A stretch of 32,000 bases of DNA from Methanopyrus kandleri AV19 (lineage in GTDB: Archaea > JAADCQ01 > Methanopyri > Methanopyrales > Methanopyraceae), in assembly GCF_000007185.1 (NCBI RefSeq), contig NC_003551.1:1290001-1322000 (forward strand), written 5' to 3'. Below are positions 1,279-18,019 of the stretch, piece after piece (the stretch's first letter is position 1; every line of letters begins with the position of its first letter). The translations under genes were made by a program, and so were the position numbers. The notes under the pieces are model-generated. The model had not been told where the DNA came from and did no database searches. It saw nothing but the letters and a program-made list of their open reading frames with translations.

Positions 1279-2064
1279 TCATACTGTCCGAGGTCGGAGC
1301 CGCCATCCGTGCTGCAGTTTCCAGCGTTCGAGTTCGAGTTGTACGTCGGGTACCTCGTGCCTCCCGTTGAGGGACTTCCTCCGGGAGCGGATCACCTTGC
1401 GGAGGTAGCTCGAGTAGTGGGCGGGCCAGCCTCCGAGGGTCCTCACGGTGAAGGACTCGAGTCGATCGGGTAGTTCCTCGAGTAAATCCCGGATCCTGGG
1501 TGATTCGGAGGGTCTGGCGTCGAATGTCAGCGCGAGCCCGCGGGTCAGGACACGTCTCGCCCGTTTGTATGGGAGGCTCGAGACCTCGGTGAGGAGGGTC
1601 TTGAGGACGGAGCGGAGGTTGCGCATCAAGTGCCGCGCGAGTTCCAAAACCTGTTTCTTATCTAGGGAAACCAACCATTCGACGAAGCTCACACTCTCGT
1701 TCTCCGGCTTGCCCAGGTAGAGCGTCCGACCGTGCCTGTGTCGAGAGCCACGCCTCCACCTCGCGACGTAGTACGGACCGCACGTGCTCCCGTTCACCGT
1801 CCGATAGGTCACCTCGAGACTCGGCTTCCTCCCACGACGGTGAACCTCTCGGAGTACCCGGAGGACTCGGATCCGCTCTACCGGGTCCGAAGGTATCGGG
1901 ATGTGAACGTGCGATCTCACCAACCCCGGCACGCGATCCAGGGTAGTGACCCCAAGTTGTATGGAGACAGAGGTGAAGCGGCACCTCGAGATATAAGCCT
2001 TGTCATCTCGGACCCCGATCGCATCTTCGGTTACCATACAAGCTCCGCAGGGAACTCCCTCCAC
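1279..2064 (-). CDS. hypothetical protein (CxxC plus 'CGPYYVARWRRG...GRTLYLGK' motif)
   Basis: 261-aa ORF with a GTG start, 27 nt downstream of the MNT-HEPN gene on the same strand, so probably co-transcribed. The Cys pair and the GPYY...YLGK hairpin-like motif recall small zinc-ribbon/DNA-binding modules, but I cannot name a family confidently. Confidence 0.5.
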   Translation of the reverse strand: MEGVPCGACMVTEDAIGVRDDKAYISRCRFTSVSIQLGVTTLDRVPGLVRSHVHIPIPSDPVERIRVLRVLREVHRRGRKPSLEVTYRTVNGSTCGPYYVARWRRGSRHRHGRTLYLGKPENESVSFVEWLVSLDKKQVLELARHLMRNLRSVLKTLLTEVSSLPYKRARRVLTRGLALTFDARPSESPRIRDLLEELPDRLESFTVRTLGGWPAHYSSYLRKVIRSRRKSLNGRHEVPDVQLELERWKLQHGWRLRPRTV

Positions 2065-2091: not shown

Positions 2092-2835
2092 TCAATCCCC
2101 GACGTCGACGAGCCTCAGGACGTAGTCGCGGACGGCCTCGACGACCTCCCGGGCGACCTCGACGAGTTCCCCCACGTCGACGTCCTCGCCCGGGTAGTGA
2201 CCGTACCGCACCTCGGACCACGCGTGGGAGAGCTCCCTCAGCTCCCATCGGTACCGACGCGACAGCTCCCCGAACGCGTCCTTCCCCGTGACCCGGTGGA
2301 GCCTGCCGAGCAACTTCCCTAGAAAGTGCGTTCCCGGCGGCGCCTCGCCCAGAGCTATGAGAGCCGCTTTGATTGTCAGCTCCACGGCCTGGTGCGCGTG
2401 GAGTGCGGCTAGGTCGTTCCAGCCCCGCTCCTCGGACTCGACGGCCGACCTCAGGAACCTCTCACCGCGTTCCAGCAGCTCCTCGACCAGCGCCCTCGTG
2501 TCGTCGGATTCCGACGTCATGAGCATACGACCCCAAACCTCGAAATCTTTCGGTCTCACGATCAGCACGTCGACACGATCCTCCGGTACCCCGGCCTCCT
2601 CGCACAGTTCGTACGCGATCCGAGCCCTCTCCCTGAAGGAGGAGGGTGCGCGCTCGCTCACCACCATCACGTCCAGGTCGCTCCCGGGCACGGCCCGGCC
2701 CTTGGCGACGCTGCCGAAGGGTACCACACGGGCGTCCTCACCCAGCACCCGCCGGGCGGCCTCCCCGAGCCGCCTCACCCACTCCCAGCTCGGGACCGAA
2801 CCCACGGCACCCGCCCCCGGCCCCGTGCGTCGCAT
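2092..2835 (-). CDS. fused minimal nucleotidyltransferase (MNT) - HEPN domain protein
   Basis: The N-terminal half has 'VVPFGSVAKGRAVPGSDLDVMVV', the GS...DxD signature of the Pol-beta-type NTase. The C-terminal half has 'LHAHQAVELTIKAALIALG...GTHFLGKLL...VRYGHYPGEDV', the classical HEPN helical pattern. ATG at 2835; a GTG about 10 codons downstream is an alternative start. Confidence 0.75.
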   Translation of the reverse strand: MRRTGPGAGAVGSVPSWEWVRRLGEAARRVLGEDARVVPFGSVAKGRAVPGSDLDVMVVSERAPSSFRERARIAYELCEEAGVPEDRVDVLIVRPKDFEVWGRMLMTSESDDTRALVEELLERGERFLRSAVESEERGWNDLAALHAHQAVELTIKAALIALGEAPPGTHFLGKLLGRLHRVTGKDAFGELSRRYRWELRELSHAWSEVRYGHYPGEDVDVGELVEVAREVVEAVRDYVLRLVDVGD

Positions 2836-2838
2836 CGT

Positions 2839-4143
2839 ATGAAGGATCCAGGTGGGACCGACGGTGTTAAGGCGGAGTTCCCCTTCCGAAGGATGATACC
2901 TCGAGGAGGACCGGGGGTATCCCCCTCGCCGCGCGTTGAGTTCGCCTCCACGGTGGGCACCTCCACGCTGAACAACCTGGCACGGGCGCTCGGGAAAGGT
3001 GACCTAGACGCCGATTTGGACCCGGGAGACGCCTACCGCGCCGCGAGGAACCCGGAGGCGGTTGAGGAGATCGGCGAGGAAGTTCTCGAGGAGGCTCTCA
3101 TGGAGCTAGTGGAGGCGGATCCGAAGCGGGCTTCCGCCGAGCTGAACACGCTCCTGCGCATGGCGGAGCGGGCCGAGCGCGAGGGTCTCGAGATCGACTC
3201 GATCGCGCTGATCCCGACGAAGACCGCCAACTGCCGGTTGTGCGCGAGGGTCGTGGCGGAGTACCTGCGGGAGGAGGGCTACGCGGTCTGGGAGACCGAA
3301 CCCGTCAGGGCGGGTGTGGACCCGGGGGAGTTCTGGTGGGGTCTAAGCGACCTGCTCGAGCGGCTCGAGGACGTCGGCGTCACGGACCCCTCGCGGAACG
3401 TGTGGGTGGCCGCCACCCCCGGCTTCAAGCCCGAGGCCGCCGTCCTGACGCTCGTCGCGTCGCTGTTCGGCAAGCCCGTGTTCTACGTGCACGAGGTCAT
3501 GAACGAGCTCGTCGAGATCCCGCCCGCGATGCCGGTCGTCACCGACCCCGGGTTCGTGCTCGGACTGATCGAGCTCCGGAGGAGGCTCGGTGACGGCGCC
3601 CCCGAAGAGGTGGCGGAGGAGGTCCTGAACGACCTGGCGCGGGACGAGGAGGAAAGGGAGCGGTACAAGCTCTTCCTCGTGGAGGATCCGCGGAGCAAGA
3701 ACATCGGACCGTCGCCGCTGGCCCGGCTCGCCGAGTCGTTCCTGGCGCTTGGCCTGCTCGCGGCGAAAGCGCGGAACTACTCCGTTGAGATCCGGACCAA
3801 GGGACACACCGTCCCGGTGAGCCGGGGAGGCGGTGTGAAGAAGGTCGACCGGGCGACCCTGAGGGAGCTCCCGCTGGAGGACGACACCCTCGAGGTCCTG
3901 GCGACCGTGGCCGCGCTCGAAGGCGTGGATGACACCTGGTTCGTGGCCGGCGAGTGGACGACCGAGGGGACGCGTCGGCACGCGAGGACCGTGGAGGTAC
4001 TCGAAACTCGGGACGACGCCGTGGTCGTGTCGGTCAGGGACCGACGGGTGCACATCTCGAGGCTCCTGATCCCGACCGAGGATCCCGAGCGGGTGGCGCG
4101 GGCCCTGAAACAGCTGGTCGGGGCGCTGTCCGACGCCCGCTAG
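2839..4143 (+). CDS. CARF-domain protein (APE2256/Csx1-like sensor) with an uncharacterised ~170-aa C-terminal domain
   Basis: The N-terminal Rossmann-like pattern is 'VEFASTVGTS', 'RASAELNTL', 'IALIPTKT', 'VAATPGFKPEAAVLTLVASLFGKPVFYVHE'. The last element is equivalent to the TGGFK motif. This is typical of CRISPR-associated CARF proteins. The C-terminal beta-rich region (about aa 260-434) matches no effector domain I recognise. ATG 2893 is an alternative start. The gene is divergent from the MNT-HEPN gene. Confidence 0.7.
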   Translation: MKDPGGTDGVKAEFPFRRMIPRGGPGVSPSPRVEFASTVGTSTLNNLARALGKGDLDADLDPGDAYRAARNPEAVEEIGEEVLEEALMELVEADPKRASAELNTLLRMAERAEREGLEIDSIALIPTKTANCRLCARVVAEYLREEGYAVWETEPVRAGVDPGEFWWGLSDLLERLEDVGVTDPSRNVWVAATPGFKPEAAVLTLVASLFGKPVFYVHEVMNELVEIPPAMPVVTDPGFVLGLIELRRRLGDGAPEEVAEEVLNDLARDEEERERYKLFLVEDPRSKNIGPSPLARLAESFLALGLLAAKARNYSVEIRTKGHTVPVSRGGGVKKVDRATLRELPLEDDTLEVLATVAALEGVDDTWFVAGEWTTEGTRRHARTVEVLETRDDAVVVSVRDRRVHISRLLIPTEDPERVARALKQLVGALSDAR

Positions 4144-4370
4144 CCACGACGTGGGAAGTCACAACACCGTACAACCGGCGCGCATCGGGTCACCTAGGAC
4201 CCGAAACCCAAAAGTTCCACGATCGGACGGTCCGTTTCCCGATGACCGACCCCGGATCGGCCCGCCCGATCGGACGGCACCATCGGAGTTTCCGTAGCGT
4301 CATAAAACCACAATTACGTTAACGCGACACACCATCCACACCGACGACCGCGACGCACGGGGGGTGTCCC

Positions 4371-5660
4371 TTGCGGACCCTCCCGATCGCGCTGACCCTG
4401 CTGCTCGTACCGGCGGCCGCCCACGCGCTCCAGCCGGAGGTCCTGTGGAAGGGAGAGTTCCCCGACTGTCCGGGGAGCGGCTTCGTACACCTGGTACCCG
4501 TCGAGAACGAGGAGAACACGGCGCTGCTCGTCGTCCGTACCTTCGAACGCTGGTCGCTGTACGAGGTGAAGGGCTCCGAGGTCACGCACCTCGGGGACGT
4601 CGACCTGGCCACGCCGAGGTCCACCGAGGTCACGGGGGCCATGTACTACCCCGACCGGAACGAGCTGCTGGTCACGGCCGTGATCGAGGAGGAAGGGGAG
4701 GGACCGGGCGGCGGCGTCCTAGCGATCAGGGTCGGACGCGACGGGGTCGACGCGCGTAAGTTCGACGGCGCCTACGTGCACGCGAGACCGTGCCCGGACG
4801 GGACGATCCTGGCGCTGCTCCACGAGGGCCACGAGTACCTGGAGGACGAGGGTGTCCACCGTCACGACCTCGCCCTGATACGCCTGTACCCCGACGGTCG
4901 CGCGGAGCGGTTGGTCACGTTCGACGTCTTCTCCACGCTGCCGCCCAGTGCCCTGCTGATCCCGGGGACGCTCCGGATCGAGCCGTTGGGCGACGACTAC
5001 CTGATCACGGGCTCGGACCTCGTGAGCATGGTCGAGCTCAGGAGGACGGCTTCCGGCTGGGATACGAGGTACTACGGCCCGATGAACCTCGGCGCCAGGA
5101 TAACCTACTACCTCGAGGAGTCGACGGTGTTAGACCCCCGGAAGCGGCTGGTGCTCGTCCGGCAGTCCAATCTGGACGAGCCGCTCGAGGGTTACTGGGC
5201 GATCTGCGAGCTCGTCCCGGAGTCGGGACTGGGAGGCCCGGTCCTGAAGGAGCTGCGCCGGGTCGACCTCGGAGGCGATGACCTGTACTTCCCGCAGTCG
5301 GGGGTCAAGCTGGAGGTCGGCGGGTCGACGTACTACGTGGTACCGGCGGTGGGCGCGTCGTCGACGAAGCTCCTGGTGCTCGGACCCGACACGGCCCATG
5401 TATGGGAGGTACCCGGGTTCAGGGAGCTGGCGGTGACCCCGAGGCTCTACGGGGCGAGGGTCTCGGAGAGGGAGACGGGAGGGTGCACGGTCGAGGTCTG
5501 CGCGTTCAAACCCTCGAGGGGCGAGGAGTGGCTGACGCCGCTCTTCGGCGGCACCGGGGAGGGCGAGAAGAAGGAGGAGCACAAGGAGAACGAGGGCGGT
5601 AAGGTCGCGATCGTCCCGGTCCTACCGGCGATTCCGTTCAGACGTCCCGGTAGGGCGTGA
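4371..5660 (+). CDS. secreted protein of unknown function
   Basis: TTG start preceded by GGGGGGTG. The N-terminal signal peptide is MRTLPIALTLLLVPAAAHA/LQ. The C-terminus has a Glu/Lys linker, then 'VAIVPVLPAIPFRRPGRA'. Confidence 0.65.
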   Translation: MRTLPIALTLLLVPAAAHALQPEVLWKGEFPDCPGSGFVHLVPVENEENTALLVVRTFERWSLYEVKGSEVTHLGDVDLATPRSTEVTGAMYYPDRNELLVTAVIEEEGEGPGGGVLAIRVGRDGVDARKFDGAYVHARPCPDGTILALLHEGHEYLEDEGVHRHDLALIRLYPDGRAERLVTFDVFSTLPPSALLIPGTLRIEPLGDDYLITGSDLVSMVELRRTASGWDTRYYGPMNLGARITYYLEESTVLDPRKRLVLVRQSNLDEPLEGYWAICELVPESGLGGPVLKELRRVDLGGDDLYFPQSGVKLEVGGSTYYVVPAVGASSTKLLVLGPDTAHVWEVPGFRELAVTPRLYGARVSERETGGCTVEVCAFKPSRGEEWLTPLFGGTGEGEKKEEHKENEGGKVAIVPVLPAIPFRRPGRA

Positions 5661-5770
5661 GCCCCTTCCCCCACTTCTTCCCCAACGGGCGATCGCGGTG
5701 CTCCCGGCCCGGTGCCGCCGATTCTCTCACGCCTCGCTTCCCGACCCCTCACACCCTCCGGGAGCGACGC

Positions 5771-6913
5771 TCACGGTGAACCCCGCCGGCGGGTCCCGGC
5801 GATCCGCCTCCGGTGAGCGCGACGTAGCGGCACCACCTGTGGGGCGTACACCCAGAACCCCTCCCTCCCCTCGGGGAACAGGAACACGACGTTCGGATGA
5901 GCCTTCATCAACCGCCCGACCTCCCCGAAATCGCCCCGTCGGTACGCCTCCACGACGTCCGAGATGAACTCCATCATCGGGTCGTCCCGCGCCACCTCGA
6001 ACCACACGAGCAACGGTTCGAGACCGTCAGCCGTGCGCATCACGACCCCGCCCTTCAACGTCCCGACACCGTCCTCGGACGTGTCCCCCGTAGGCCTCCA
6101 CGGGACGGCGACGTGTCGGGTCCGTATCTTCCCGGATCCGAGGTCGAACGTGACCTCGACCCCCTGTAGAGGGGCGACGTCCGCCTTCCGGTGGGAAACT
6201 GTGGCGATGGCCAGCTCCAACGCGGAGGTAAGCGGGTCTTCGAGCAGCTGAACCCGCATGTTCACGACGTCGCCACCCACGAGGTACTCGACGTCCAGCA
6301 GCGGCCACGGTCCATCGGCCAGGACCACCCGGTCCGACGATCCCCCGCCCTCCAGTACCGCCGCCGGTGGCACGTAGGGGCGGGGAGCGAGGGGACAACC
6401 ACCGTCGATCGGGAGCTGAACACCGCCGACGACCGTGCACCGGTAACCGTCTACCAAAGCGCTCACGTCGAGGGGGATCGGCGGGTAGAGCCCCCGAACG
6501 ACCACGGCCGGCCCTTCCACCACTACGGTCCGGCCCACGCGGTCCAAACGGATCCGGACCTTCCCGGGTTCGCACTCGACGTACGACAGGGGTAGGACGT
6601 CCGAGACGCTCGTCACGCTACCCCTCGGACGTCCCCCAGCCGGAACCACGAACGCGTCCAGCCCGGGGACGTAGACGACGTCCACGGTCCGTCCCCGGAA
6701 CCCGCGCGCGTCGACGACGATCCTGGCGTCCGCACTCTTCCACTTGGGTTCCACGACGGACTCGAAGTACCGGGCCAGGTACCCGATGTCGTCGCTCGCC
6801 TTACCCCGGATCAGGGGCTCACCCGCCGACGGTGTCGCGGTCAGGATCAGCCCCAGAACCAGCGGGACGACCGTCACTCGCGGCCCCGTGGTGACGACGT
6901 TTCGGGAGCTCAT
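5771..6913 (-). CDS. secreted protein of unknown function
   Basis: The ORF is open to 7030 (MKKAN...). I prefer ATG 6913 because it gives MSSRNVVTTGPRVTVVPLVLGLILTATPSAG, a good signal peptide, and is preceded by GGAAAGGG. The C-terminus is '...APQVVPLRRAHRRRIAGTRRRGSP'. Confidence 0.6.
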   Translation of the reverse strand: MSSRNVVTTGPRVTVVPLVLGLILTATPSAGEPLIRGKASDDIGYLARYFESVVEPKWKSADARIVVDARGFRGRTVDVVYVPGLDAFVVPAGGRPRGSVTSVSDVLPLSYVECEPGKVRIRLDRVGRTVVVEGPAVVVRGLYPPIPLDVSALVDGYRCTVVGGVQLPIDGGCPLAPRPYVPPAAVLEGGGSSDRVVLADGPWPLLDVEYLVGGDVVNMRVQLLEDPLTSALELAIATVSHRKADVAPLQGVEVTFDLGSGKIRTRHVAVPWRPTGDTSEDGVGTLKGGVVMRTADGLEPLLVWFEVARDDPMMEFISDVVEAYRRGDFGEVGRLMKAHPNVVFLFPEGREGFWVYAPQVVPLRRAHRRRIAGTRRRGSP

Positions 6914-7127
6914 AAGTCCGTTTCCCTTTCCGGGTAGCAACGTGGGGTTTTCATCCGGGCCCGTAGGCCGTGCGTGGACCGAGCGTGCCGGTTGAGAGGT
7001 CGTGGAACCGGCGGCGTTCGCTTTTTTCATGAAATTAATTAGAGAGTCCCGATCCTGTACCGCCGTTGGTTATACTACAGACTAATCATGAAATGTTATA
7101 ATATTGTTATAGAATAATGTTAATGCA

Positions 7128-7617
7128 CTATCACTATCTGCATTATTACGGTTTAATTATAAGTTTCTAACAGTTGTAAAGTTAATAATCATCTATACAG
7201 CAGCGAGTACAGTGCAGTTTCATTACCCGTGTTATTACGGGTTAATTGCGAGTCTGTTGTATTGGTATTGGGATGTTCCATGTGACTTTTACTCTGGCGT
7301 ATGGTTTCATTACCCGTGTTATTACGGGTTAATTGCGAGAGACAAACTAGTAGCGTTCGCGAGATTCAAAGGAGATATCACGGTGTGTTCGTTTCATTAC
7401 CCGTGTTATTACGGGTTAATTGCGAGTTTTGCAATCGATGATGCTTTTGCTAGAATTTCTTTCATTTCTGGGTCTAAATCTCTTAATGTTTCATTACCCG
7501 TGTTATTACGGGTTAATTGCGAGCATGGACATAGACACGGACATAGACATGGACACGTCAACGGCTGTCGACATTCTAGCCGTTTCATTACCCGTGTTAT
7601 TACGGGTTAATTGCGAG
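7128..7617 (-). CRISPR. CRISPR array 1: five intact 36-nt repeats plus one degenerate terminal repeat
   Basis: On the plus strand GTTTCATTACCCGTGTTATTACGGGTTAATTGCGAG occurs at 7217, 7304, 7391, 7488 and 7582. A degenerate copy (~25/36 matches) lies at 7128-7163. Spacers are 53, 51, 51, 61 and 58 nt. Minus-strand sense is inferred from three things: the ...ATGAAAC repeat end, the degenerate repeat at the far end, and the TATA box in the 7618-8147 leader. Confidence 0.95.
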
Positions 7618-8147
7618 GGCGGCCAGTTCTTCCGGAGGACCCACCTTTACACTATGAAACTACCGAGGGGATTCACTATCCCTTACCCACCAGAACTAGC
7701 ACATCGGTCCTATTTAAAGATTGCCCCGATTTCGCTGAACACTTAATCATACTAAAATCCAATACTAATTCGTTTCCGTTTAACCGAAAGCCTTATATAT
7801 AATATTGGTAATACCGAAAACCATAGCTTTCTCTTACGAGTAATTAATCTGTTAACTTGATGAAGTAATAACTGTACAGTACTCGTAAACCGCCTTAATA
7901 CCTCATGAGAACTGTAATCCTTTACTAACAGTTAGAATTGTTATCCTTTCGAAGTGAAGTAAGGTGAAAATCTTGCACTGTTAAAGTGCACTAGTTAGGC
8001 TGCAGGAAAAACTATTACCAGTATTGATAAGTATGAGTAAAAGTGGTAATACTTCATACTCAAACCCTCCGGAACGACCGTTTCCTACGGGGAAGAACCC
8101 GCCTTTCTACCAAGTAAGTTAACCCTATGAAAAACCAGTACGAGATG
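7618..8147 (-). promoter_or_regulatory. CRISPR leader 1 (about 530 bp), inverted copy of leader 2
   Basis: AT-rich. It is a reverse-complement homologue of 16384-16913 with long identical blocks. TTTAAATA (minus strand, 7711-7718) lies 94 nt upstream of the first repeat, the same spacing as in leader 2. Conserved oligo-T tracts (A5 on the plus strand at 8007-8011 and 8130-8134) follow the cmr6 stop. Confidence 0.8.
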
Positions 8148-8181
8148 GTACGACCATTACTTAAATTAAGTAATACTCCCA

Positions 8182-9390
8182 TCAGTACCGAACCTCGCCG
8201 TACCCGTAGCCGGCGCACGTCCTGGCGCCGATACCCAGGCGCTCCACGCCGTACTTCAGGAGCCTCAGGGCGACGTCCAGCGACCCCCTCCGCTCCGAGA
8301 CCAGGACCGTGCGCCACCTGGAACCCCGCCGGACTGTCAGGAACTCGACGGGCTTGGGTCGCATCGACTCGTGGGGAGGCCCCTCTCCCTCGTAGTACTC
8401 GCCGTAGTGCGGGTTCAGGACGTCGACCTCGAGCGGCGAGTCGACGTCCCTCAACCAGTCCGGATCCGGGAGCGCGTCGTGGAAGGTCACCTCGCCGGCG
8501 CGCTTGGACTCCGATGCGTTCCCGTCGTCGGACTCTTTGGGTTCCGACTCCCTTGGCTTCGATCCGAACACCTCACGGAAGCGCTTCCGGGCCTGTCGGG
8601 TGTCGTCGGCCCCGAAGTACTTCCTCAGCTCGTCGGGGTCTCCGCGTTCGAGGATCAGCTCGCCGGCCGCGCGGGCCACGCCCTTGAGGGTCGTCCCCGG
8701 GATCACGGGCAGGCCGGTCACCGGGTCCAGGGTGAGGTCGTTCTCGGCCGGGTGCGGGCCGCCCATCCCCACGACCAGCCTGGAGTGCGGGAACCGGAGC
8801 TCGACCTCGCGGACCCTGAGGTGCGGGCTCCGGCCCAGCTCCCTCAGCGTCTTCAGGTAAGACCCGACGTACCCGCGGATCTCGTCGGAGCGGGCCGCTT
8901 TCTCCGCGGCGTCCACGACCCGTCTCAGGAGCCTTCGGACCTCCCGTCTGAGGTTCTCCTCCCCGTCACTCAGCGCCCGGAGGGCCAGCGTCCGTTTCTC
9001 GTGGTACGGGTGCGTCCGGACGCCCTCCTCGGGGACTAGGGACTCCTCCGCCGCCTCCGCGACCCTCCGGCGCAGTCTTTCCACGCGGTCGCGCCCCTCA
9101 TCCTCGGGCAACTCGCCGACGGCGGCCGCGTTCCGGGCCAGGTCGGCGAGCCGCGTGGCCAGTCTGTCGGCCCGGGGTAGACCTTCTCTCTCCAGCTCGC
9201 GTTCGATCCGGTCGAGCGGCAGCCTCGAGAGCGCCTCCCTCACGTCCTCCCGTTCCGCGAGCACCAGGGCGCCCGGCAGACCGTAGTACAGGAGGACCGA
9301 GCACAGGGTCGAGAGGTCACCCTTGAGCTCCTCGTCGACGTCCTCCCGGAGCCGCGACAGCAGGACGTTCTCCGGGGAACGCTCGCTCAT
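8182..9390 (-). CDS. cmr6: Cmr6 (type III-B RAMP subunit)
   Basis: ATG at 9390 overlaps the cmr4' stop as ATGA. A helical N-terminal ~210 aa is followed by RAMP motifs: 'RLVVGMGGPHPAENDLTLDPVTGLPVIPGTTLKGVARA', 'VLNPHYGEYY', and C-terminal 'LGIGARTCAGYGYG'. In the six-frame track this gene is the 3' part of the 694-aa ORF 8182..10266. Confidence 0.8.
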   Translation of the reverse strand: MSERSPENVLLSRLREDVDEELKGDLSTLCSVLLYYGLPGALVLAEREDVREALSRLPLDRIERELEREGLPRADRLATRLADLARNAAAVGELPEDEGRDRVERLRRRVAEAAEESLVPEEGVRTHPYHEKRTLALRALSDGEENLRREVRRLLRRVVDAAEKAARSDEIRGYVGSYLKTLRELGRSPHLRVREVELRFPHSRLVVGMGGPHPAENDLTLDPVTGLPVIPGTTLKGVARAAGELILERGDPDELRKYFGADDTRQARKRFREVFGSKPRESEPKESDDGNASESKRAGEVTFHDALPDPDWLRDVDSPLEVDVLNPHYGEYYEGEGPPHESMRPKPVEFLTVRRGSRWRTVLVSERRGSLDVALRLLKYGVERLGIGARTCAGYGYGEVRY

Positions 9391-10266
9391 CCCAGCTCCC
9401 CCTCGAAGTTCAACCGTAGGACGCCGAAGCCGACGGAACCGCCCGCGCCGAGCTGTACCGAGGTCACCCTCCGGAGGACCTCGAGCGCGCGCTCCTCGGT
9501 CGGACCCAGCGTGGACGCGTCGACCTCGTACGGTCCCGCGAGGAGGGTGAGCCTGGGGCAGGAACTCCTCGGTCCAGAGGGCGCCCTCCTCCACGGTCTT
9601 GTCCCACGGGCCACCCAGCCGGACGCGGGTGCGGAGCTCGGTGACGACGGGCCGGTCCGGGTCGAGGAGCCCGGCGAAGGTAGCGTCGTCGAGGATTAGG
9701 AGGCGGGAGTGCAGCGGTAGCTTCCACGGTCCCGGGACGACCAGCTCGTCCGCGACGCCGTCGACTTTCCCGTTCCTGCGGACCACGAGCTCGCGGTGCT
9801 CCAGCACCACGCGCTCCGCGGGGAAGCCCGAGGGCGCGAGCGCCTCCCCGTCGGGCTCGGGCGCCTCGACGCCGATCCAATCCAGGACGTAGGGACAGGT
9901 GAGCCAGACGAGGGGCGTCGTTTTACCACCCTCCAGCGCGACGGGCGCGGGGACGGCCACGGGCAGGAGGTCCCCGAACGTCACCGCGCCCTTGGTGTCT
10001 CGGTCGCCGAAGAGCACCCGCAGGGCGCGCTCCCGCCGCTCCTCGGTGTCCTCACCCAGATCGCGCAGGATCTCATCGACCAGGTCGTCCGGCTTCTCCA
10101 GCTCGGCCTCGACGTGGGTCCTCAGCGCTCCCTTCACGGAGCTCCCCGGGACGTAAGGTACGCGGGTGTGCCTGCGCCGGATCAGCGGGAGGTCGATCGC
10201 GCCGGGTCGCCCACCAGTGCCCACTCGGGTGGGGGTCACCGTGAGGGCCCAGAGCCGGTTCTCCAA
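9387..10266 (-). CDS. cmr4: Cmr4-family RAMP paralogue (cmr4'), frameshifted as sequenced
   Basis: TTG start. The N-terminus 'LTVTPTRVGTGGRPGAIDLPLIRRRHTRVPYVPGSSVKGALR' is a Cmr4/Cas7 signature that includes the catalytic Asp context. The frame is lost after '...GALWTEEFLP'. The Cmr4 C-terminus 'LTLLAGPYEV...VQLGAGGSVGFGVLRL' continues in the +1 frame (ORF 9387..9614). The length is 880 nt (3n+1), consistent with one extra base near the CCCC run at 9555-9558. Confidence 0.75.
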
Positions 10267-10272
10267 GGGTGT

Positions 10273-11404
10273 TCACCCCGCCGATTTCGACACCCTCACG
10301 CGGCTCTCGGTTACTTCGATCCCGTGGCGCTCGACGCCGCGGAACGACCGGCGTAGCGTCCTCTCGAGAGCGTTCTCGACCCTCTTCCGATCCCCCTCCT
10401 CGACCACGACGGTCCCGTTCCCGGGGTGCAGCTTCCCTAACCACAGCAGCAGGACGGAGACCACGTAGCGACCGCGGTTCACGCCGTCGAGCTCGACCGG
10501 CGTCACGGAGAGGAGGAGCGGGGATCGCAGCAGCCAGGGGACCCCCGGCGTCGCTCGAACCTAGCAGCCACCGGAGCTCCTCGTTCGAGTTCTCGAACCT
10601 CTCGTTCCGGAGCCTCCGACGGGCCTCCCTGAGCGTGCCCCCCAGACGGTCCAGGAGTTTATCGACGCGCTGCTTCCTCCACTCGAACGTCCAGAGGGTG
10701 GCGCGACGGAAGCTCGGGAAGGATTCCACGGGCCCCGAGGTACCGTCGGAGCGTTCCGCGATCAGTTCCCTGAGATCGTCCAGGCACCCGCGGAGCCTAT
10801 CGACGAAGTCGTCGGTACCCTCCACGCGGGTGGACAGGTCGTCGGCCCGGACCTCGAAGCACCCGAAGGCGCGCCTGAACCGCCGGCCGTACCCACCGAT
10901 CAGGGACAGCAGCTCCAGGGAGAGCTTCGCAACCTCGAGTGCGTCTTCTCGGAGGCCGGTCAGCTCGAGCTCGAAGGTCGCTCCGGCCCGGATCACGAGA
11001 GGTTGCTCTTCACGTCGACCGCGCAGGTAGATGGGCGGGCATAGATAGCACCGGTTGTCGACCCGAAGTCGACCGTCTTCGTCGATCGTGATGCGGTATC
11101 GCCTTCGACGCCTCGCACACCGGCCACCCTCCTCGACGTCGTCCTCACCCACGCCCCTCCTCAGCCGCACCGAGACCGGGGAGGGTCGGAGGTCCTTCCC
11201 CTCCGACGGTCTGCCGCCCCAGAACTCGGCCTCGACGCGGCGGAGCCCGTCCCCGTCCAGGAAGGAGGCCGCGACGGCCCGGAACGCCCACCTGAACTGT
11301 CCCCTGAGCTCCGGGGGTCGGGGGAGCGGTCCGTCCCGGTCGTACCTCACCTGCGAGGTGATCGCGGGCGTGGCGAAGGTGCACCCGACGGTCAGGGTCC
11401 TCAA
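10273..11404 (-). CDS. cmr1: Cmr1 (type III-B RAMP subunit), frameshifted as sequenced
   Basis: TTG start. Signatures are 'CTFATPAITSQ...ELRGQFRWAFRAV' and 'LIGGYGRRFRRAFGCFEV' (G-rich loop). The frame is lost after '...EELRWLLGSSDAG'. The C-terminus 'PWLLRSPLLLSVTPVELDG...RYVVSVLLLW' continues in the +1 frame (ORF 10273..10506). The length is 1132 nt (3n+1). The shift lies in the GGGGG-T-CCCC run (plus-strand 10537-10546). Confidence 0.75.
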
Positions 11405-11474
11405 CCGCGGCCCCGGTCCGCCGCCGGGGATAGCTTTGATAAAGTTAATTCAGGGAGAGTGGCGAGGCGCCGGG
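11405..11474. promoter_or_regulatory. bidirectional promoter region between cmr1 and cas10
   Basis: This is the only AT-rich island (ATAGCTTTGATAAAGTTAATTC, about 11430-11451) in an otherwise GC-rich 70-bp gap between the divergent start codons (TTG 11404 on minus, GTG 11475 on plus). TATA-like elements sit roughly 25-40 nt from each start. Confidence 0.55.
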
Positions 11475-13472
11475 GTGAGCCGGGTGCCGAAGCTGGTCAC
11501 CGTGCGCCTACGGCCGTCCGGCGGCATCAAGACCTGGCTCCGGGGTCGTAAACTGGCGGACTCCCTCGCGGCGAGTTGGTTGCTAGGCTACCTGGTTTAC
11601 CGCGTGTACGAGCGGCTGTGCCGTAGGCTGGACGTCGAGAGGGTCCTCCGACCCGTCCTACCGGGGAATCACCCCTTCGAGAAGAAGCCGGATAACCTGG
11701 AGCCGTGGGAGACGCGCGGGTGCGTGATGCCGGACGCCGTCGAGCTGGTCGTGGACGGCGACGTGAGCGCGGAGGAGGTCGCCCGCATCGCCCGGGAGAC
11801 CGTGGAGGACGTGCTGGAGGACGTCTTGAAGCGCGGCCGCGAGACCCCCTGGAGGTGTCATAACGTCAGCCTGTACGAGCCGCTCGAGGACTGGTGGGAG
11901 CGCACGTCCGGGAGGTCCGCGGCGAGGGTCGAGCTCCCGCCCGGCCTGATCCAGGTCTCCGCGGCCGTCGTGGACCTGGAGGAGCCAGACGACGAAGAAG
12001 CGTACCGGGAGGCCGTCCGCCGCGTCGCGAGCCTCGTCGGGACGCGGGCCGAGGTGATGGACGCGAGGGGATCCGGGGGTCAGCCCTGCAGCGTCTGCGG
12101 TACGTACCCGACCGTGGGAGATCGTGAGTTCTGGGAGGAGCTCTCGGAGCGGCTCCCTCCCCAGCTCCTGAAGCGGTGGGAGGGCGGCTTCGAGCGCCTC
12201 TGCGCCGCGTGCCTGCTCAAGCGCTACTTCGGGACGCACGTGATACGCTCCTGGTACCTGGAGAAGATCTCCTGGATCCCGTCCACGGCCGAGGTCGCGA
12301 TCACCCCGGTCAAGGTCGGGATACTGAACAGGTGGGAGGAGCTCAAGGACGACGGGGGCTTCCGAGAGGCTGCCCTCGGGTTTCTGAGGGAAGTGCTACC
12401 GGAGCAGCTGCGGCAGATCGCCCACTACCTCAGGTGCGTCAAGGAGGTGGATCGGGCGGGGGAGCTCGAGGAGGCCGCCAAGGACCTGAAGAGGGACCGC
12501 CTGGAGCCCGAAGGGCTACCGGAGGACGTGAGGAAGGAACTCCACCGGCTGACCCCCAAGGCGCCCAGACTGGACGAGGAGCTGGGGGACGTCGAGGATT
12601 CCCTGATCGAGGTCCTCCTCTGCGTCGAGGGCAGGTTCTGGTACGATCCCGAGGCCCCGGGGGGACTGAGGGAGCTGCTCGAGGCCGGCGACCTGGAGAA
12701 CCTCTACACCCCGTACTACGCCCTCCTGAAGCTGGACGGCGACCGCATGGGCGAGCTCTTCTCGCGGGACCCGGAGACGACCCGCGGGGCCTCCCGGGCC
12801 ACGATCGAGTTCGGCCTGAAGGCGATGAGAATCGTGCACGGGCACTACGGGGTCCTCCTGTACTGCGGGGGCGACGACGTCTTCGCGGCGCTCCCCCTGC
12901 ACACGGCCCTCGACTGCGCGTTCGAGCTCGAGGAAACCTTCCGGGAGAGCCTGAAGAAGTGGAAGGGGACCTGCAGCGCCGGGCTGGCCGTCGTCCACCA
13001 CCTCCACCCGCTCCGGGACGCGATCGACCTGGCGTACCGGCTCGAGAAGAGGGCTAAGGAGGCCGGCAGGAACCGGCTCGCGGTAGGACTGTACCGGAGG
13101 AACGCCCCGGAGCGGGTCGCGGTCCTGAAGTGGGAGGCCGACGGGAAACGCCCCTGGGGGCTACTGTTCGAGCTCGCGGACCTCGTCTCCAGGAGGGCCG
13201 CGTACCACCTGCCGCGGGACTGGTGGGAGGGCTGGTGGGAGGAGCTCGACGAGCCGAAGAACCTGCTCCGCTCGCTGCTCGGGTACGTGGCGCTGAGGCA
13301 CCGAGGTGAGGGCGCCGACGAGGGTGAGATCGTCGGGCTCGTGGAGAGGATCGCCGAGGTCGTCGGGAAGGCCGGACCCGAGGACGGCGACCCGGGCGCG
13401 GAGGTGGGTCGCGCGCTGGAGATCGCCCTCGAGCTCCGCTCGGAGTGCCCGGCCGGGGGTAACGGGGGTTGA
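11475..13472 (+). CDS. cas10: Cas10/Cmr2 without an HD domain (GGDD cyclase motif intact)
   Basis: GTG 11475 (or 11484) is in frame with ORF 11055..13472; the upstream part of that ORF is antisense to cmr1 and then crosses the promoter gap. Motifs: 'KLADSLAASWLL', zinc finger 'CSVCG...CAAC', 'LLKLDGDRMGELF', 'LLYCGGDDVFAALP'. About 665 aa. There is no room for an N-terminal HD domain. Confidence 0.85.
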   Translation: MSRVPKLVTVRLRPSGGIKTWLRGRKLADSLAASWLLGYLVYRVYERLCRRLDVERVLRPVLPGNHPFEKKPDNLEPWETRGCVMPDAVELVVDGDVSAEEVARIARETVEDVLEDVLKRGRETPWRCHNVSLYEPLEDWWERTSGRSAARVELPPGLIQVSAAVVDLEEPDDEEAYREAVRRVASLVGTRAEVMDARGSGGQPCSVCGTYPTVGDREFWEELSERLPPQLLKRWEGGFERLCAACLLKRYFGTHVIRSWYLEKISWIPSTAEVAITPVKVGILNRWEELKDDGGFREAALGFLREVLPEQLRQIAHYLRCVKEVDRAGELEEAAKDLKRDRLEPEGLPEDVRKELHRLTPKAPRLDEELGDVEDSLIEVLLCVEGRFWYDPEAPGGLRELLEAGDLENLYTPYYALLKLDGDRMGELFSRDPETTRGASRATIEFGLKAMRIVHGHYGVLLYCGGDDVFAALPLHTALDCAFELEETFRESLKKWKGTCSAGLAVVHHLHPLRDAIDLAYRLEKRAKEAGRNRLAVGLYRRNAPERVAVLKWEADGKRPWGLLFELADLVSRRAAYHLPRDWWEGWWEELDEPKNLLRSLLGYVALRHRGEGADEGEIVGLVERIAEVVGKAGPEDGDPGAEVGRALEIALELRSECPAGGNGG

Positions 13473-14803
13473 CCGCGCGCCACGTGGCGGTCGGGTTCCT
13501 GGTCCTGCCTCAGGACCGCGCGTTCTTCCGCAGGCCCGAGCCATTCAGGGCCGCGGCCGAGTCGGTGGCGGAGTCGGAGGGTCCCAAGCCCTGGACCGTG
13601 GCCGGCTGCGTCCGCAACGCGCTCCTGGAGGTCACCGACGGGGACCTCGGGGAGGTCCTGGAGTACCCGCGGAAGCTCGTCAGGTCGGCCCCGCCCGGGT
13701 CGATCGGGGAGGCCCTGGGGGAGACGGCCCTCTTCCTCGGGACCTGGGTCGTCGAGGTGCGGCCCGGGGCGCCCGACCGGCTCGAGCGCGTCTGGTGGCC
13801 GTGCCCCGCCCACCTGGCGAGGTACGAGCCCGAAAGTGGGGGCGAGGCCGTCGACCTGCTGAGGGTCGAGGAGGTCGGGGACGCGGCGATCGCGTTCTCG
13901 GGTCACGACGAAGCACTCCGCCGCCGGTACGGGTTCATGACGCCGAAACCCCCGAGGCCCGGCTCGGACGTCGAGACCCCCGGGCGCTACGTCGACACGG
14001 GAACGATCTCGAAGATCCTCGCGGGAAGGACGCCCGCGAGAAGGACGCCGGACCTCGAGGACAACGTCGCGGGACCCGGGGAACTCCTGCGTCCCGAGCT
14101 CCACGTCGGCGTCAAGCTGGTCGGGCTCAAGACCGCGGACGAGGGCTACCTGTACGCCGCGAGGTTCCTCAGACCGGGCAGGTCCCCGGTGGACGGGGGT
14201 AGTCTCGTCGGGTTCCTCACGGTCCTGGCGGTGCCCGAGGACGCGTGGGACGACGGGGTACTGGAGGACCTCCCCTCCCCGGGCGGCCGACTCGGCCGGG
14301 GACGGCACGCGTGGGTGATCCCGCTCCGCGCGGGGGACTGGTCGGACGACGTCTTCCCCGAGGTGGAGGAACCGGAGGGGGACCTCCCGGGCCTGTACCT
14401 CGAGACCCCGACCCCGTTCCCGGAGGGTGACGTCCGGTCCTCCTCCCCGGGCGACCGCCTGAAGGCAGAGGCCGTCCTCGTGAGACCCGGGAGCCCAAGA
14501 GATCGCGTCCTCCAGGTCGAGCTCGAGGTCTCGGAGGTGGAGTCCGAGGTACTGGCCGACCGGGTGATCGAGACCCGCCGCGTCTCGACGTGGTCCGGTA
14601 AGCGCGCCTCCCCTGACCACCTGGCCGCCGCCGAGGGAACCGTGCTCGCGCTCGGGAAGCTCGACGTCGACCCCGGCACGCCCCTGCTCCTCTTCCCCAG
14701 GATGGGGGATGAAGACAGAGAGCTGCTCGCCTCCAGGCTCGCGTTCCACCTCTCCGGCGTGGGTACGGCCTACGCCCTGAGCCTACCGGGGGTGAGCCCG
14801 TGA
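13469..14803 (+). CDS. cmr3: Cmr3
   Basis: The TTG start overlaps the cas10 stop (TTGA). Motifs: 'LPQDRAFFRRPEPF...PWTVAGCVRNALL' and 'ELHVGVKLVGLKTADEGYLYAARFL', with a C-terminal Gly-rich end. The gene-order position is as expected for cmr3. Confidence 0.75.
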   Translation: MTARHVAVGFLVLPQDRAFFRRPEPFRAAAESVAESEGPKPWTVAGCVRNALLEVTDGDLGEVLEYPRKLVRSAPPGSIGEALGETALFLGTWVVEVRPGAPDRLERVWWPCPAHLARYEPESGGEAVDLLRVEEVGDAAIAFSGHDEALRRRYGFMTPKPPRPGSDVETPGRYVDTGTISKILAGRTPARRTPDLEDNVAGPGELLRPELHVGVKLVGLKTADEGYLYAARFLRPGRSPVDGGSLVGFLTVLAVPEDAWDDGVLEDLPSPGGRLGRGRHAWVIPLRAGDWSDDVFPEVEEPEGDLPGLYLETPTPFPEGDVRSSSPGDRLKAEAVLVRPGSPRDRVLQVELEVSEVESEVLADRVIETRRVSTWSGKRASPDHLAAAEGTVLALGKLDVDPGTPLLLFPRMGDEDRELLASRLAFHLSGVGTAYALSLPGVSP

Positions 14804-15828
14804 CGGACGCCCTCCCGTACTTCCTCGTGTGCCGGACGCCGACGAGGGCGGGTGCGGGTCAGCGGGCGACGGACGTGATCGACCTACCCCTCCAGCGCGA
14901 GGCGCACACGAAGCTCCCCGTGATCTACGGCTCCACGCTGAAGGGCGCCCTCCGCCACGCGACGCTCCGGAAACTCTCCGAGGAGCTCGACGGGGAGACC
15001 TCCGAGGGGCTCGTCGACGCGGTCTTCGGGGACAGACCCGGCGAGGGTAGCCCGTCACCGGGCGTCGTCGCCTTCAGCGACGCCGTCCTCCTGGCCATGC
15101 CCGTGAGGTGCGAGCCCGGCTTCCTGGCCTGGGTGACCTCACCGTACCAGCTCGGTAGGCTGTACGAGGTCCTGGAGCTGACCGGGGAGCTGGAGGACCT
15201 CCGGGAGGCCGTCGAGGAGGTCCTGAACGACTGTAAGGACCCGCGGGGGAACGGTGCCCTCGCGCCCGAGGAGGGCACTCTCCTACTCGACAGGATCAGG
15301 GTGAGGGCGGAGGCCAGCGACGCCGTCGGGGATCTCGCCGGGGTGCTCTCGGAGACGGTGTTCGAGGGCGCGCCCGAGCCCCACTTCCGGCGCTACGTGG
15401 AGGAACGGCTCGTGGTCCTGGGCGACGGCGCGTTCGCGGACCTCGTCAACTCGTGCACGGAGCGCGTCGTCCGCGTCCGGCTCAACGAGGAGAAGACCGT
15501 GGAACAGGGCCCCTGGTACGAGGAACGCGTGCCCGAGGGGACCGTCTTCTTCGGCACGCTGAACGTGCGGCACGACACCGTACCGCCCAAAAACGGCGTC
15601 GACGCCCGGAAGGTGCTGTTCGGGAGGTGGGAACCGGACGGCGTGCCCGACGGGGACGACAGGAAGTTGGAGGCCCTCAAGGAGGCCGCCGGGGAGCTGG
15701 AGGCGGGCGTGCTCGGGGCGGTCGCCGACGGGAGCGGGGACGGCTACCTGGACCTCCGGTTCCAGGTCGGGGGCAGCGAGACGGTGGGCTTCGGTCTCGT
15801 ACGTCTCAGGCAGTTCGTGGGGGAGTGA
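14800..15828 (+). CDS. cmr4: Cmr4 (backbone RAMP subunit), intact
   Basis: The GTG start overlaps the cmr3 stop (GTGA). Motifs: 'VCRTPTRAGAGQRATDVIDLPLQREAHTKLPVIYGSTLKGALRHA', 'EQGPWYEERVPEGTVFFG', and C-terminal 'FQVGGSETVGFGLVRL'. Confidence 0.85.
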   Translation: MTDALPYFLVCRTPTRAGAGQRATDVIDLPLQREAHTKLPVIYGSTLKGALRHATLRKLSEELDGETSEGLVDAVFGDRPGEGSPSPGVVAFSDAVLLAMPVRCEPGFLAWVTSPYQLGRLYEVLELTGELEDLREAVEEVLNDCKDPRGNGALAPEEGTLLLDRIRVRAEASDAVGDLAGVLSETVFEGAPEPHFRRYVEERLVVLGDGAFADLVNSCTERVVRVRLNEEKTVEQGPWYEERVPEGTVFFGTLNVRHDTVPPKNGVDARKVLFGRWEPDGVPDGDDRKLEALKEAAGELEAGVLGAVADGSGDGYLDLRFQVGGSETVGFGLVRLRQFVGE

Positions 15829-15831
15829 GCG

Positions 15832-16332
15832 GTGACCGTGACCCCGTTCCGGTGGGCCGTCGAGTGCGTGAGGGATGTGGAGCGGCTGACGGGCACGGTC
15901 TGGAAGGACTCCGACGACCCGTTGGAGACGTACTACAAGCGCGCCACGAGGGCCGCCGTGATGGTGCTCGAGGAGGGCCTCCCCCTGACCCTCGCGTTCA
16001 TGGCCTCCCGGGGATCGAAGGACCCCGGCACCCTGCTGGCCTACCACCTCGCCATGTACCTCAACCACGTCGTGTTCGCCGACGAGCCCGAGTGGTCGGA
16101 GCTCAGGGAGGAGTGCTTCGGCCGGTTCGACGACGTCGACGAGGACGAGATCGCGGAGAAGGTCGGAGAGTACGTCCGGGACGAGGTCAGGGAGGCCCTG
16201 GTGGAGCTGGCCGGGAAGGAGGGCACCCTCGAGATGCGCTACGCCGAGTCACGGGCGCTCGAACTGCTCAACGTGATCAAGCGCGTGGCCGAGGGTTGGC
16301 ACAAGGTGTCGAGGTTCGGGGGCGGGGATTGA
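15832..16332 (+). CDS. cmr5: Cmr5 (small subunit)
   Basis: 166-aa helical protein starting 4 nt after cmr4. 'YYKRATRAAVMVLEEGLPLTLAFMASRG' and 'LEMRYAESRALELLNVIKRVAEG' fit the Cmr5 pattern. Confidence 0.75.
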   Translation: MTVTPFRWAVECVRDVERLTGTVWKDSDDPLETYYKRATRAAVMVLEEGLPLTLAFMASRGSKDPGTLLAYHLAMYLNHVVFADEPEWSELREECFGRFDDVDEDEIAEKVGEYVRDEVREALVELAGKEGTLEMRYAESRALELLNVIKRVAEGWHKVSRFGGGD

Positions 16333-16383
16333 TCCCACCTTTCACCCGTCTTTCTTATGAGATATCATCGAAGATTATAGTAT

Positions 16384-16913
16384 CATCTCGTACTGGTTTT
16401 TCATAGGGTTAACTTACTTGGTGGAAATGCGGGTTCTTCCCCGTAGGAGACGGTCGTTCCGGGGCGCTTGAGTATGAAGTATTACCACTTCTACTCATAC
16501 TTATCAATACTGGTAATGGTTTTTCCTGAAGCCCAAAATATGCACTTTAATAGTGCGAGTTTTGCATCTTATTTCAATTCGAAGAGATGACGATTCTAAC
16601 CGTTAGCAAAGAATTATAGTTCTTACAAGATATCAAAGCTATCTGTAGGCACTATGTAATTATTACTTCATTAAGTTAACTCATTAATTACTCATCAGGA
16701 GAAACTATAACTTTCGGTATTACCGATGTTGTATATTAAACTTTTGACTAAAGGGAAACAGATTAGTATCGGATTTTAGTATGATTAAGTGTTCAGCGGA
16801 ATCGGGGTAATCTTTAAATAGGACCGGTACGCCAGCCCTAGTGGGTAAGGGATAGGGAATCTCCTCGGTGGTTTCGGAGTGTAAAGGGTGATCCTCCGGA
16901 AGAACCGCCTGCC
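16384..16913 (+). promoter_or_regulatory. CRISPR leader 2 (about 530 bp), inverted copy of leader 1
   Basis: Homologous to the reverse complement of 7618-8147. TTTAAATA at 16813-16820 lies 94 nt upstream of the first repeat. T5 tracts at 16397-16401 and 16520-16524 follow the cmr5 stop. Confidence 0.8.
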
Positions 16914-17701
16914 CTCGCAATTAACCCGTAATAATATGGGTAATGAAACGGTAATGAAACTAGTATAATCTCCGTTAATTCATCTGCTACCTCTGGTAGT
17001 CTCTGTATTTCCGCAAACGCTCGCAATTAACCCGTAATAATATGGGTAATGAAACAACGCCTGGAGAAAAGCCTTCGGTAAACCCCTAACAGACACAGCC
17101 CTAAGACCCCTCGCAATTAACCCGTAATAATATGGGTAATGAAACAATACCAGAACGTCTCACCCGCATGGAACTTCGGCTTCAGCGGAGTACCACACTC
17201 ACAGACTCGCAATTAACCCGTAATAATATGGGTAATGAAACCGCTGTGGATAAACGATTGTCCACCGTGATACATAGCCGTCTAACCCTTCTTCGTCTCG
17301 CAATTAACCCGTAATAATATGGGTAATGAAACCTGTCTTCGCTTCTGGCCTTACTGTCTTCGTGAATGTTCCAAGCTCCAGGTAGTCAACTATCATCCTC
17401 GCAATTAACCCGTAATAATATGGGTAATGAAACTCTTGAGTAGGATACCGTTGATGATTGCCTCTCTCGTTTCCTTTGCCTCGTAGCCTCGCAATTAACC
17501 CGTAATAATATGGGTAATGAAACTGTGCTGGTGCTAAGTGAAAAGATTGCCACCCAATGCCCTAGATCTCTGACTCGCAATTAACCCGTAATAATACGGG
17601 TAATGAAATCCCACTACCGTCCTACATACTGCAGAGAGGTCCACCGTTGTTTTTATCCCATAACTCTCGTAATTAATTCGTAATAAAACGGATAATAAGA
17701 C
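16914..17701 (+). CRISPR. CRISPR array 2: eight 36-nt repeats plus degenerate terminal repeat(s)
   Basis: CTCGCAATTAACCCGTAATAATATGGGTAATGAAAC occurs at 16914, 17020, 17110, 17206, 17297, 17398 and 17488. A variant lies at 17574 (...AATACGGGTAATGAAAT) and a degenerate copy at 17666-17701. Further relics run to about 17800. Spacers are 70, 54, 60, 55, 65, 54, 50 and 56 nt. Confidence 0.95.
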
Positions 17702-18019
17702 ATTCACAAACTCTTTAAAGTTATAAATTCAATCATTCTCCGATTAACCACTATTTTGCAATTAACCTACAACCTATAATAATATTTGTGGTTAACCTAC
17801 GTACAATATAAACGACGACTATCGTTATCGGAGGCCATTCGTCGGCCGACCGCGACGCCGTTCCCGACTCTTTGAGGGAAGCGCGGGGACTGTCCGTGGC
17901 GTCCGCTTACACGTGGCGTACCCCGGGTCCGGATGGTGGTACCGCCCGTCGGCTCGCGCCGATCGCGTCGTCGGGACGGAAACGTTACGAATTACGTAAC
18001 TAATGGCGGGGAAGGGGCG

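Follow-up and report, generated by a model that had tools for sequence, protein, structure and literature searches.

The genome of the hyperthermophilic euryarchaeal methanogen Methanopyrus kandleri AV19 contains a stretch in which two CRISPR arrays read outward from a set of cmr genes, each behind a long leader that is an inverted copy of the other. We analyzed this locus within a window of 32 kb (positions 1,290,001 to 1,322,000 of NC_003551.1), and the question it raises is whether the mirror symmetry reflects a special machine in which effector genes and arrays are transcribed together, as an original prediction made from the sequence had proposed, or ordinary arrays placed on both sides of a cmr cassette. 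We conclude with high confidence that the region is a type III-B (Cmr) CRISPR-Cas locus flanked by CRISPR clusters 2 and 3, that the arrays are autonomous, and that the mirror layout is specific to the lineage. The symmetry would then come from a conserved cmr cassette with an ordinary array unit on either side, and no special co-transcribed palindromic machine would be required. Coordinates are collected in Table 1.

The identity and direction of the arrays could be taken from published RNA sequencing. The left and right arrays correspond to clusters 2 and 3 in the numbering used by Su, Tripp & Randau (Nucleic Acids Res 2013, PMC3695527). Table S1 of that study lists the CRISPR RNAs (crRNAs) of cluster 2 at about 1,297,028–1,297,520 as 'neg' and those of cluster 3 at about 1,306,950–1,307,600 as 'pos', and these crRNAs equal the left and right spacers of the window base for base, each behind a 5' AATGAAAC tag. 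The possibility that the crRNAs map to the inward-reading strand was already tested by these data, and therefore the outward transcription of both arrays, which the original prediction had proposed, is established. The same paper reports that all five M. kandleri clusters are transcribed and processed to mature crRNAs with an 8-nt 5' tag, that degenerate terminal repeats still yield crRNAs, and that a box A element (TTTAAA) is conserved, with both the transcription start sites (TSSs) and box A mapped. It also places the genome's Cas1 and Cas2 genes elsewhere, flanking an Argonaute gene.

Both arrays consist of regular direct repeats and unique spacers, with degenerate repeats at their leader-distal, outer ends as had been predicted, and Rfam CRISPR-DR11 matches the repeats with 62 bits (gathering score, 45). 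In the left array, the 36-nt repeats lie at 7582, 7488, 7391, 7304, and 7217, followed by a degenerate copy at 7128–7163; in the right array, the identical repeats run from 16914 to 17523, and the degenerate copies lie at 17574 (2 mismatches), 17666 (8 mismatches), and about 17762. The repeats are in opposite orientation, but they are not the same repeat as had been claimed, because two positions differ by array: all left repeats read ...AATAACACGGG... and all right repeats read ...AATAATATGGG... (in other extracts, ...AACACGGG... and ...TAATAACACGGGT... on the left, ...AATATGGG... and ...TAATAATATGGGT... on the right). When the repeat is read as a hairpin, its closing pair is G-U in the right variant and G-C in the left. 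Because each array has fixed its own variant, the repeats suggest that the two arrays grew independently since their separation. No spacer is common to both arrays; the resemblance of right spacer 3 to left spacer 4 lay in the range given by shuffled spacers and was set aside as chance.

The spacers are 50–70 nt long with 31–54% GC, within a host region of 65–74% GC (7164–7581 and 16950–17665), and the arrays together with their leaders form islands of 36–47% GC in this DNA. The CRISPRdb paper of 2007 gives M. kandleri spacers of 51–72 bp as the longest known (PMC1892036). Searches for protospacers gave no match among GenBank phages, in IMG/VR (queried with two 25-mers), or in any of the retrieved loci, and the array repeat was not found in IMG/VR. 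In the right array, spacer 1 (the newest) is also the longest, at 70 nt, and starts with GGTAATGAAAC (16950–16960), which is identical to the final 11 nt of the repeat; cluster 4 spacer 3 of Su et al. also contains ATGGGTAATGAAAC (PMC3695527). Imprecise integration may have left such copies of the repeat end within spacers. In the left array, the first spacer holds 2.4 copies of a 12-nt tandem repeat, GGACATAGACAC (7527–7555).

Repeat finding and alignment placed the leaders on the inner side of both arrays, as predicted. The two leaders are reverse complements of each other with 82.6% identity over 530 aligned positions and zero gaps, and the proposed BLAST alignment, which included the first repeats, gave E = 1.7e-180; all four identical runs quoted in the original prediction were found. 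Both leaders carry TTTAAATA at −101 to −94 and G at −71 and −73, and the predicted TTTAAATA box coincides in both copies with the mapped box A promoter (PMC3695527). An inverted motif pair (ATGAAGTATTA / TATTACTTCAT, spacing 175–176 nt) and a direct one (TTGAGTATGA / TTTAGTATGA, spacing 306–307 nt) are kept in three Methanopyrus leaders, the two of AV19 and one of a Methanopyrus sp. contig (L004, 6345–6883), and are candidate protein-binding sites. A cluster of the form TGCAC...GTGCA...TGCA(C/T) is also seen at about −340 to −380 of the leader.

Related genomes show which part of the arrangement is conserved. The order cmr1-cmr4'-cmr6 / cas10-cmr3-cmr4-cmr5 is kept, wholly or as far as the contig covers it, in six relatives (L002, L003, L004, L072, L073, and L074), whereas the positions of the arrays vary around it. 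In four of the six, a gene with a CARF domain lies directly behind cmr6 on the same strand, with no leader there. In L074, a second M. kandleri genome, a leader again begins right after cmr6. In L004, whose Cas10 is 71–73% identical, varying with the alignment, cmr5 is followed by an intergenic region of about 567 bp and then by an outward array, and the leader matches those of AV19 with 71.3% and 71.6% identity over 529 nt with a single indel. Three more distant leaders from one hydrothermal metagenome (L002, L040, and L014) stand before repeats with differences at 9 of 36 positions. The homology of these leaders extends from GTATGAAGTATTA (about −440), which is invariant, to the repeat, and they share TTTAAATA and GCCGCC just before the repeat. 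The array of L002 sits on the far side of a convergent gene and is read in the direction of the cmr block. That of L040 (10384–11630), behind a leader of the same family, lies beside a 1270-aa Prim-Pol gene and several open reading frames (ORFs) without Pfam matches; no matches to cas-family genes were obtained beside it, and it may adjoin an integrated element.

Because the cassette is kept in the relatives while the array sites differ, we interpret the mirror layout as an M. kandleri-specific rearrangement around a conserved cassette. The long leaders had been regarded as peculiar to the pair, which did not hold, since homologous leaders of 430–530 bp stand before the relatives' arrays, one of them with no cas genes identified beside it. 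Judged from these alignments, array units appear to carry the long leader wherever they are placed, and it would be a lineage-wide trait, a conserved non-coding DNA element common to the arrays of the whole Methanopyrus lineage. A scan of metagenomes with the leader pattern returned 63 loci, of which 3 were real (all from JGI sample 3300026512) and the others chance matches; a scan of a genome collection returned a single 3.9-kb contig, and neither the whole locus nor the leader gave a match in a plasmid database.

The assignment to type III-B, made in the original prediction, was supported by profile matches except for a weak Cmr1 and a broken cmr4'. Cas10, Cmr3, Cmr4, Cmr5, and Cmr6 all scored above the curated NCBIfam cut-offs, with TIGR01898 scores for Cmr6 ranging from 202 to 237 bits. 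The Cmr1 candidate reached 26.8 bits with Pfam RAMPs (cut-off, 22.1) and only 11.9 bits with TIGR01894 (cut-off, 28.65; model positions 9–164 of 167 aligned), and this cmr1-like gene position is kept in all relatives. Cas10, of about 660–680 aa, contains Pfam Cmr2_N and Cas10-Cmr2_palm2 and the GGDD cyclase motif, and the domain search gave no match to an HD domain. It is 100% identical to Logan contigs from SRR606249, which we take to be the defined mock community containing M. kandleri AV19, and from ERR9765783. The GGDD motif without an HD match, together with the nearby CARF-domain gene, presumed to encode the cyclic-oligoadenylate-responsive partner of Cas10, suggests a system relying on RNA cleavage plus cyclic-oligoadenylate signalling. 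The gap between the divergent operons, given as 70 bp in the original prediction, measures 79 bp by homology. The TATA-like element CTTTGATAAAG in its middle, a predicted promoter, could serve both operons, and it is kept in L002 (GCTTTTATAAAG at about 7964–7980).

Three-frame reading showed that cmr1 and cmr4' each change frame in the window, by 1 nt each. The claim of a complete Cmr gene set split in two was therefore borne out for the split into two operons and not for completeness, as cmr4' is frameshifted in AV19 while the canonical cmr4 is intact. When the window was compared with two independent Illumina assemblies (Logan, SRR606249 and ERR9765783; contigs L005 and L006), the only internal difference over 8.3 kb was the extra G of cmr1, and the only other difference lay at a contig end. 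The extra G is missing from L005, L006, and L074. Because both Illumina assemblies lack it and encode an intact 376-aa protein, the cmr1 frameshift is confined to this sequence version and is likely a reference sequence error or variant.

The extra C of cmr4', in contrast, is common to the reference and both Illumina assemblies, and L074, which has an intact 294-aa cmr4', lacks it. The insertion reads CTGCCCCAGG against CTGCCCAGG in L002 and L003 and CT-ACCCAGG in L074; in codons of the minus strand, it is CTG CCC CAG against CTG CCC AGG in the relatives. Past the shift, a stretch of 56 residues encoded in the +1 frame retains 84–86% identity to the relatives, so the mutation is considered recent. 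The zero frame runs stop-free through 55 codons into the ATG of cmr6, resulting in a 694-aa ORF, which is AAM02509.1, a protein to which GenBank ascribes 'two domains of the RAMP family'. CCC-C is the kind of site where +1 ribosomal slippage can re-pair.

On the reading that we prefer, the cmr genes would be expressed as two divergent operons, cmr1-cmr4'-cmr6 and cas10-cmr3-cmr4-cmr5, both starting from the 79-bp gap, and each array would be a unit of its own, composed of its ~530-bp leader, the box A promoter, and the 36-nt repeats. The repeats would be cut 8 nt from their 3' end, a cut that is documented, presumably by a Cas6 encoded beyond the window, giving crRNAs with a 5' AAUGAAAC tag that would guide Cmr complexes and probably also the Csm complexes of the same genome. 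The leader upstream of the promoter most likely serves spacer integration and/or promoter control.

The model of the original prediction, in which each cmr half is transcribed through the leader into its array and thereby couples effector and guide expression, appears very unlikely to us. Each operon does run in the same direction as its own leader and array, and only 48–50 bp of unique sequence separate its stop codon from the duplicated leader. However, each leader has two T5 tracts on the sense strand, at equivalent positions between the operon stop codon and the promoter, and no A5 tract on that strand; oligo-T tracts are the usual archaeal termination signal. In the relatives, the same leader also drives arrays located elsewhere than behind cmr genes, and at least three M. 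kandleri clusters with the same promoter architecture are not adjacent to the cmr block (PMC3695527). Because each array has its own mapped promoter, feeding by the cmr operons is not needed, and the claim that each array is fed by half of the effector genes was not upheld. An alternative that we consider unlikely, if less so, attributes the symmetry to a recent pair-specific inverted duplication, or to ongoing gene conversion of the leader-plus-first-repeat units, with the 570-bp inverted repeats as a recombination substrate that flips the 8.2-kb cassette or homogenizes the leaders. The AV19 copies are indeed closer to each other than to the L004 leader, which is equidistant from both, and over the ~130 nt nearest to the cmr genes their identity is 94.7%. 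Contigs assembled from short reads end exactly at the edges of the inverted leaders, and before alignment column 100 the left leader is only about 87% identical to its L074 orthologue while the adjoining coding DNA is 96% identical. The L074 comparison, however, covers 147 nt, which lie at the end of a contig and within a repeated, possibly mis-assembled element, and for this reason the hint of gene conversion between the leader copies is tentative. Each array has fixed its own repeat variant and the two have no common spacer, and because the long leader occurs at other arrays in the relatives, a pair-specific duplication is not needed. With the cassette inverted, the arrangement would be equivalent, so that no function can be deduced from inversion.

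The conservation of the leader could also be explained if the roughly 430 bp upstream of the promoter encoded a small protein or a structured non-coding RNA of their own, an explanation to which we assign hardly any probability. Between AV19 and L004, leader identity is 71.5% (random expectation, 25.9%) compared with 68.7% (41.8%) at the third codon positions of cas10-cmr5, and there is 1 gap event in 529 nt of leader compared with 18 in 1,593 codons of the coding genes; a stop-free antisense frame of 63–66 codons is kept in three leaders. Nevertheless, the 94 substitutions between the AV19 copies are spread as 33/30/31 over the three codon positions, and about 18 of 63 residues of the antisense frame differ between these copies by our count. 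The leaders show no convincing consensus RNA fold (RNAalifold, only −12.7 kcal/mol over 465 columns), Rfam gave nothing on the leaders beyond the CRISPR-DR11 repeats, and the supplement tables of Su et al. list no small RNA at the leader coordinates (accessible part of PMC3695527). These comparisons indicate a leader that is non-coding yet constrained, with conservation above that of synonymous sites. Candidate explanations for the leader that we rejected were coding potential (no codon periodicity, and changes mostly non-synonymous), DNA bending or wrapping (no 10–11 bp AA/TT periodicity), and an origin from decayed repeats (best matches within the shuffled range). A bolder proposal, which we regard as quite unlikely, is that the ~430–530 bp leader acts as one large cis-acting DNA element, nearly intolerant of length change and kept uniform by gene conversion, that is needed by the lineage's unusual adaptation machinery, inserting 50–72 nt spacers (cas1 and cas2 flanking the Argonaute gene). 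If so, the inverted pair around the cmr cassette would be maintained rather than accidental.

Several points weigh against the reading of autonomous arrays serving a Cmr system. Profile searches found no cas6, cas1, or cas2 within the window, and processing and adaptation are assigned to genes elsewhere. Because cmr4' is frameshifted in AV19, the Cmr complex is possibly defective in part, and it may be mainly the Csm system that uses the crRNAs. The comparison of AV19 leaders covers two of the five clusters, 2 and 3. Finally, that the arrays are probably not fed by the cmr operons depends in part on termination at T5 tracts, which is predicted from their sequence.

Beyond the left array lie genes for a CARF-domain effector, a fused MNT-HEPN protein, and a NurA-like protein, a homologue of which is also found near the cmr block in L002. 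In the four relatives that have the CARF gene behind cmr6, MNT and HEPN are separate genes; for these reasons, the flank at 2092–7030 is considered to be inverted and rearranged in M. kandleri. Elsewhere in the window, GC-rich ORFs contain tandem repeats at 18363–18456 and 24132–24262 (periods of 30, 24, and 66 nt), and 18001–18400 shows a strong AT skew of −0.53.

Table 1. Features of the type III-B locus and its surroundings (positions are those of the 32-kb window)
Feature	Position	Strand	Description and evidence
DUF1678 protein gene	1279..2064		Left edge of locus; Pfam E 3.8e-101
Fused MNT-HEPN gene	2092..2835	-	Beyond left array
CARF-domain effector (Cas_APE2256; CARF-RelE/Csm6-like)	2839..4143	+	Profile and PADLOC matches; orthologue directly downstream of cmr6 in relatives
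Unknown 429-aa ORF	4371..5660	+	Beyond left array
NurA-like type III accessory gene	5771..7030	-	PADLOC NurA 'Type III coevolved', E 1.3e-107; just beyond left array
Left CRISPR array (cluster 2)	7128..7617	-	5 intact 36-nt repeats and 1 degenerate outer repeat; spacers 51–61 nt; crRNA match
Box A/TATA promoter TTTAAATA, left array	7711..7718	-	TSS and box A mapped in Su et al. 2013
Left leader	7618..8151	-	39% GC; T5 tracts at 8134 and 8011; motifs including GTATGAAGTATTA
cmr6	8182..9390	-	402 aa from its own ATG; RefSeq 402-aa Cmr6; TIGR01898 202 bits; relatives' Cmr6 aligns over 9390–8191
cmr4' (second Cmr4/Cas7 paralogue)	9390..10266	-	Frameshifted by extra C at about 9557–9560; profile matches and relatives
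cmr1-like RAMP gene	10273..11404	-	Extra G in run 10537–10540; intact 376-aa protein in Illumina contigs
Divergent intergenic region	11405..11483	.	79 bp; near-palindromic TATA-like element CTTTGATAAAG at about 11434–11447
cas10/cmr2	11484..13472	+	TIGR02577 416 bits (cut-off 79.4); GGDD; Logan gene calls start at 11436
cmr3	13469..14803	+	TIGR01888 348 bits; PF09700
cmr4	14800..15828	+	TIGR02580 344 bits; intact
cmr5	15832..16332	+	PF09701; TIGR01881 30.1 bits (cut-off 27.9)
Right leader	16380..16913	+	36% GC; T5 tracts at 16397 and 16520; motifs as in left leader
Box A/TATA promoter TTTAAATA, right array	16813..16820	+	TSS and box A mapped in Su et al. 2013
Right CRISPR array (cluster 3)	16914..17797	+	7 identical repeats, then 3 increasingly degenerate; spacers 50–70 nt; crRNA match

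In summary, the feature is known in substance and mostly ordinary: the arrays, their strand, promoter, TSS, crRNA tag, and very long spacers have been published. The accessible parts of PMC3695527 and PMC1892036 make no mention of the 530-bp inverted leader homology, of the conservation of the leader in other Methanopyrus-like genomes, or of the cmr4' frameshift. What is modestly new is the near indel-free leader of about 530 bp conserved across species, the possible gene conversion of its copies, and the strain-specific cmr4' frameshift. A non-coding leader of this length that is more conserved than synonymous sites offers a defined object on which the role of long archaeal leaders upstream of the promoter can be studied. 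Users of AV19 Cmr proteins should be aware of the cmr4' frameshift of this strain, of the origin of the 694-aa "two-RAMP-domain" protein by reading through that shift, and of the extra base in the reference cmr1; corrected sequences are available from relatives with intact genes (L002, L003, L072, and L074).

Compared with known systems, the closest is the locus itself, as M. kandleri clusters 2 and 3 with their III-B gene set have been described with the same DNA, strands, 8-nt tag, TSS, and box A (PMC3695527; PMC1892036). The architecture had been called unusual, but besides this earlier characterization, paired CRISPR modules, and CRISPR loci that each have a leader and are physically linked by cas or cmr cassettes, have been described for Sulfolobales. 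The family I pairs of Sulfolobales are in inverted orientation with leaders of several hundred bp, and the M. kandleri locus likewise has two inverted arrays with homologous leaders, both facing one cas cassette. In the family I pairs, however, the cassette contains adaptation and type I-A genes, whereas the genes between the M. kandleri arrays are cmr effector genes only, in two divergent operons, with no adaptation genes among them; the resemblance is one of architecture, not of family membership. The canonical III-B Cmr systems of Pyrococcus furiosus and Thermus thermophilus have the order cmr1-cas10-cmr3-cmr4-cmr5-cmr6. Unlike these, the M. kandleri locus is divided into two divergent operons and has an extra Cmr4 paralogue (cmr4'), a weak cmr1 assignment, a Cas10 without an HD-domain match, and far longer spacers and crRNAs. 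Nevertheless, it agrees with the canonical systems in its Cas10/Cmr2, Cmr3, Cmr4, Cmr5, and Cmr6, all above the cut-offs, and in the 8-nt 5' tag of its crRNAs.

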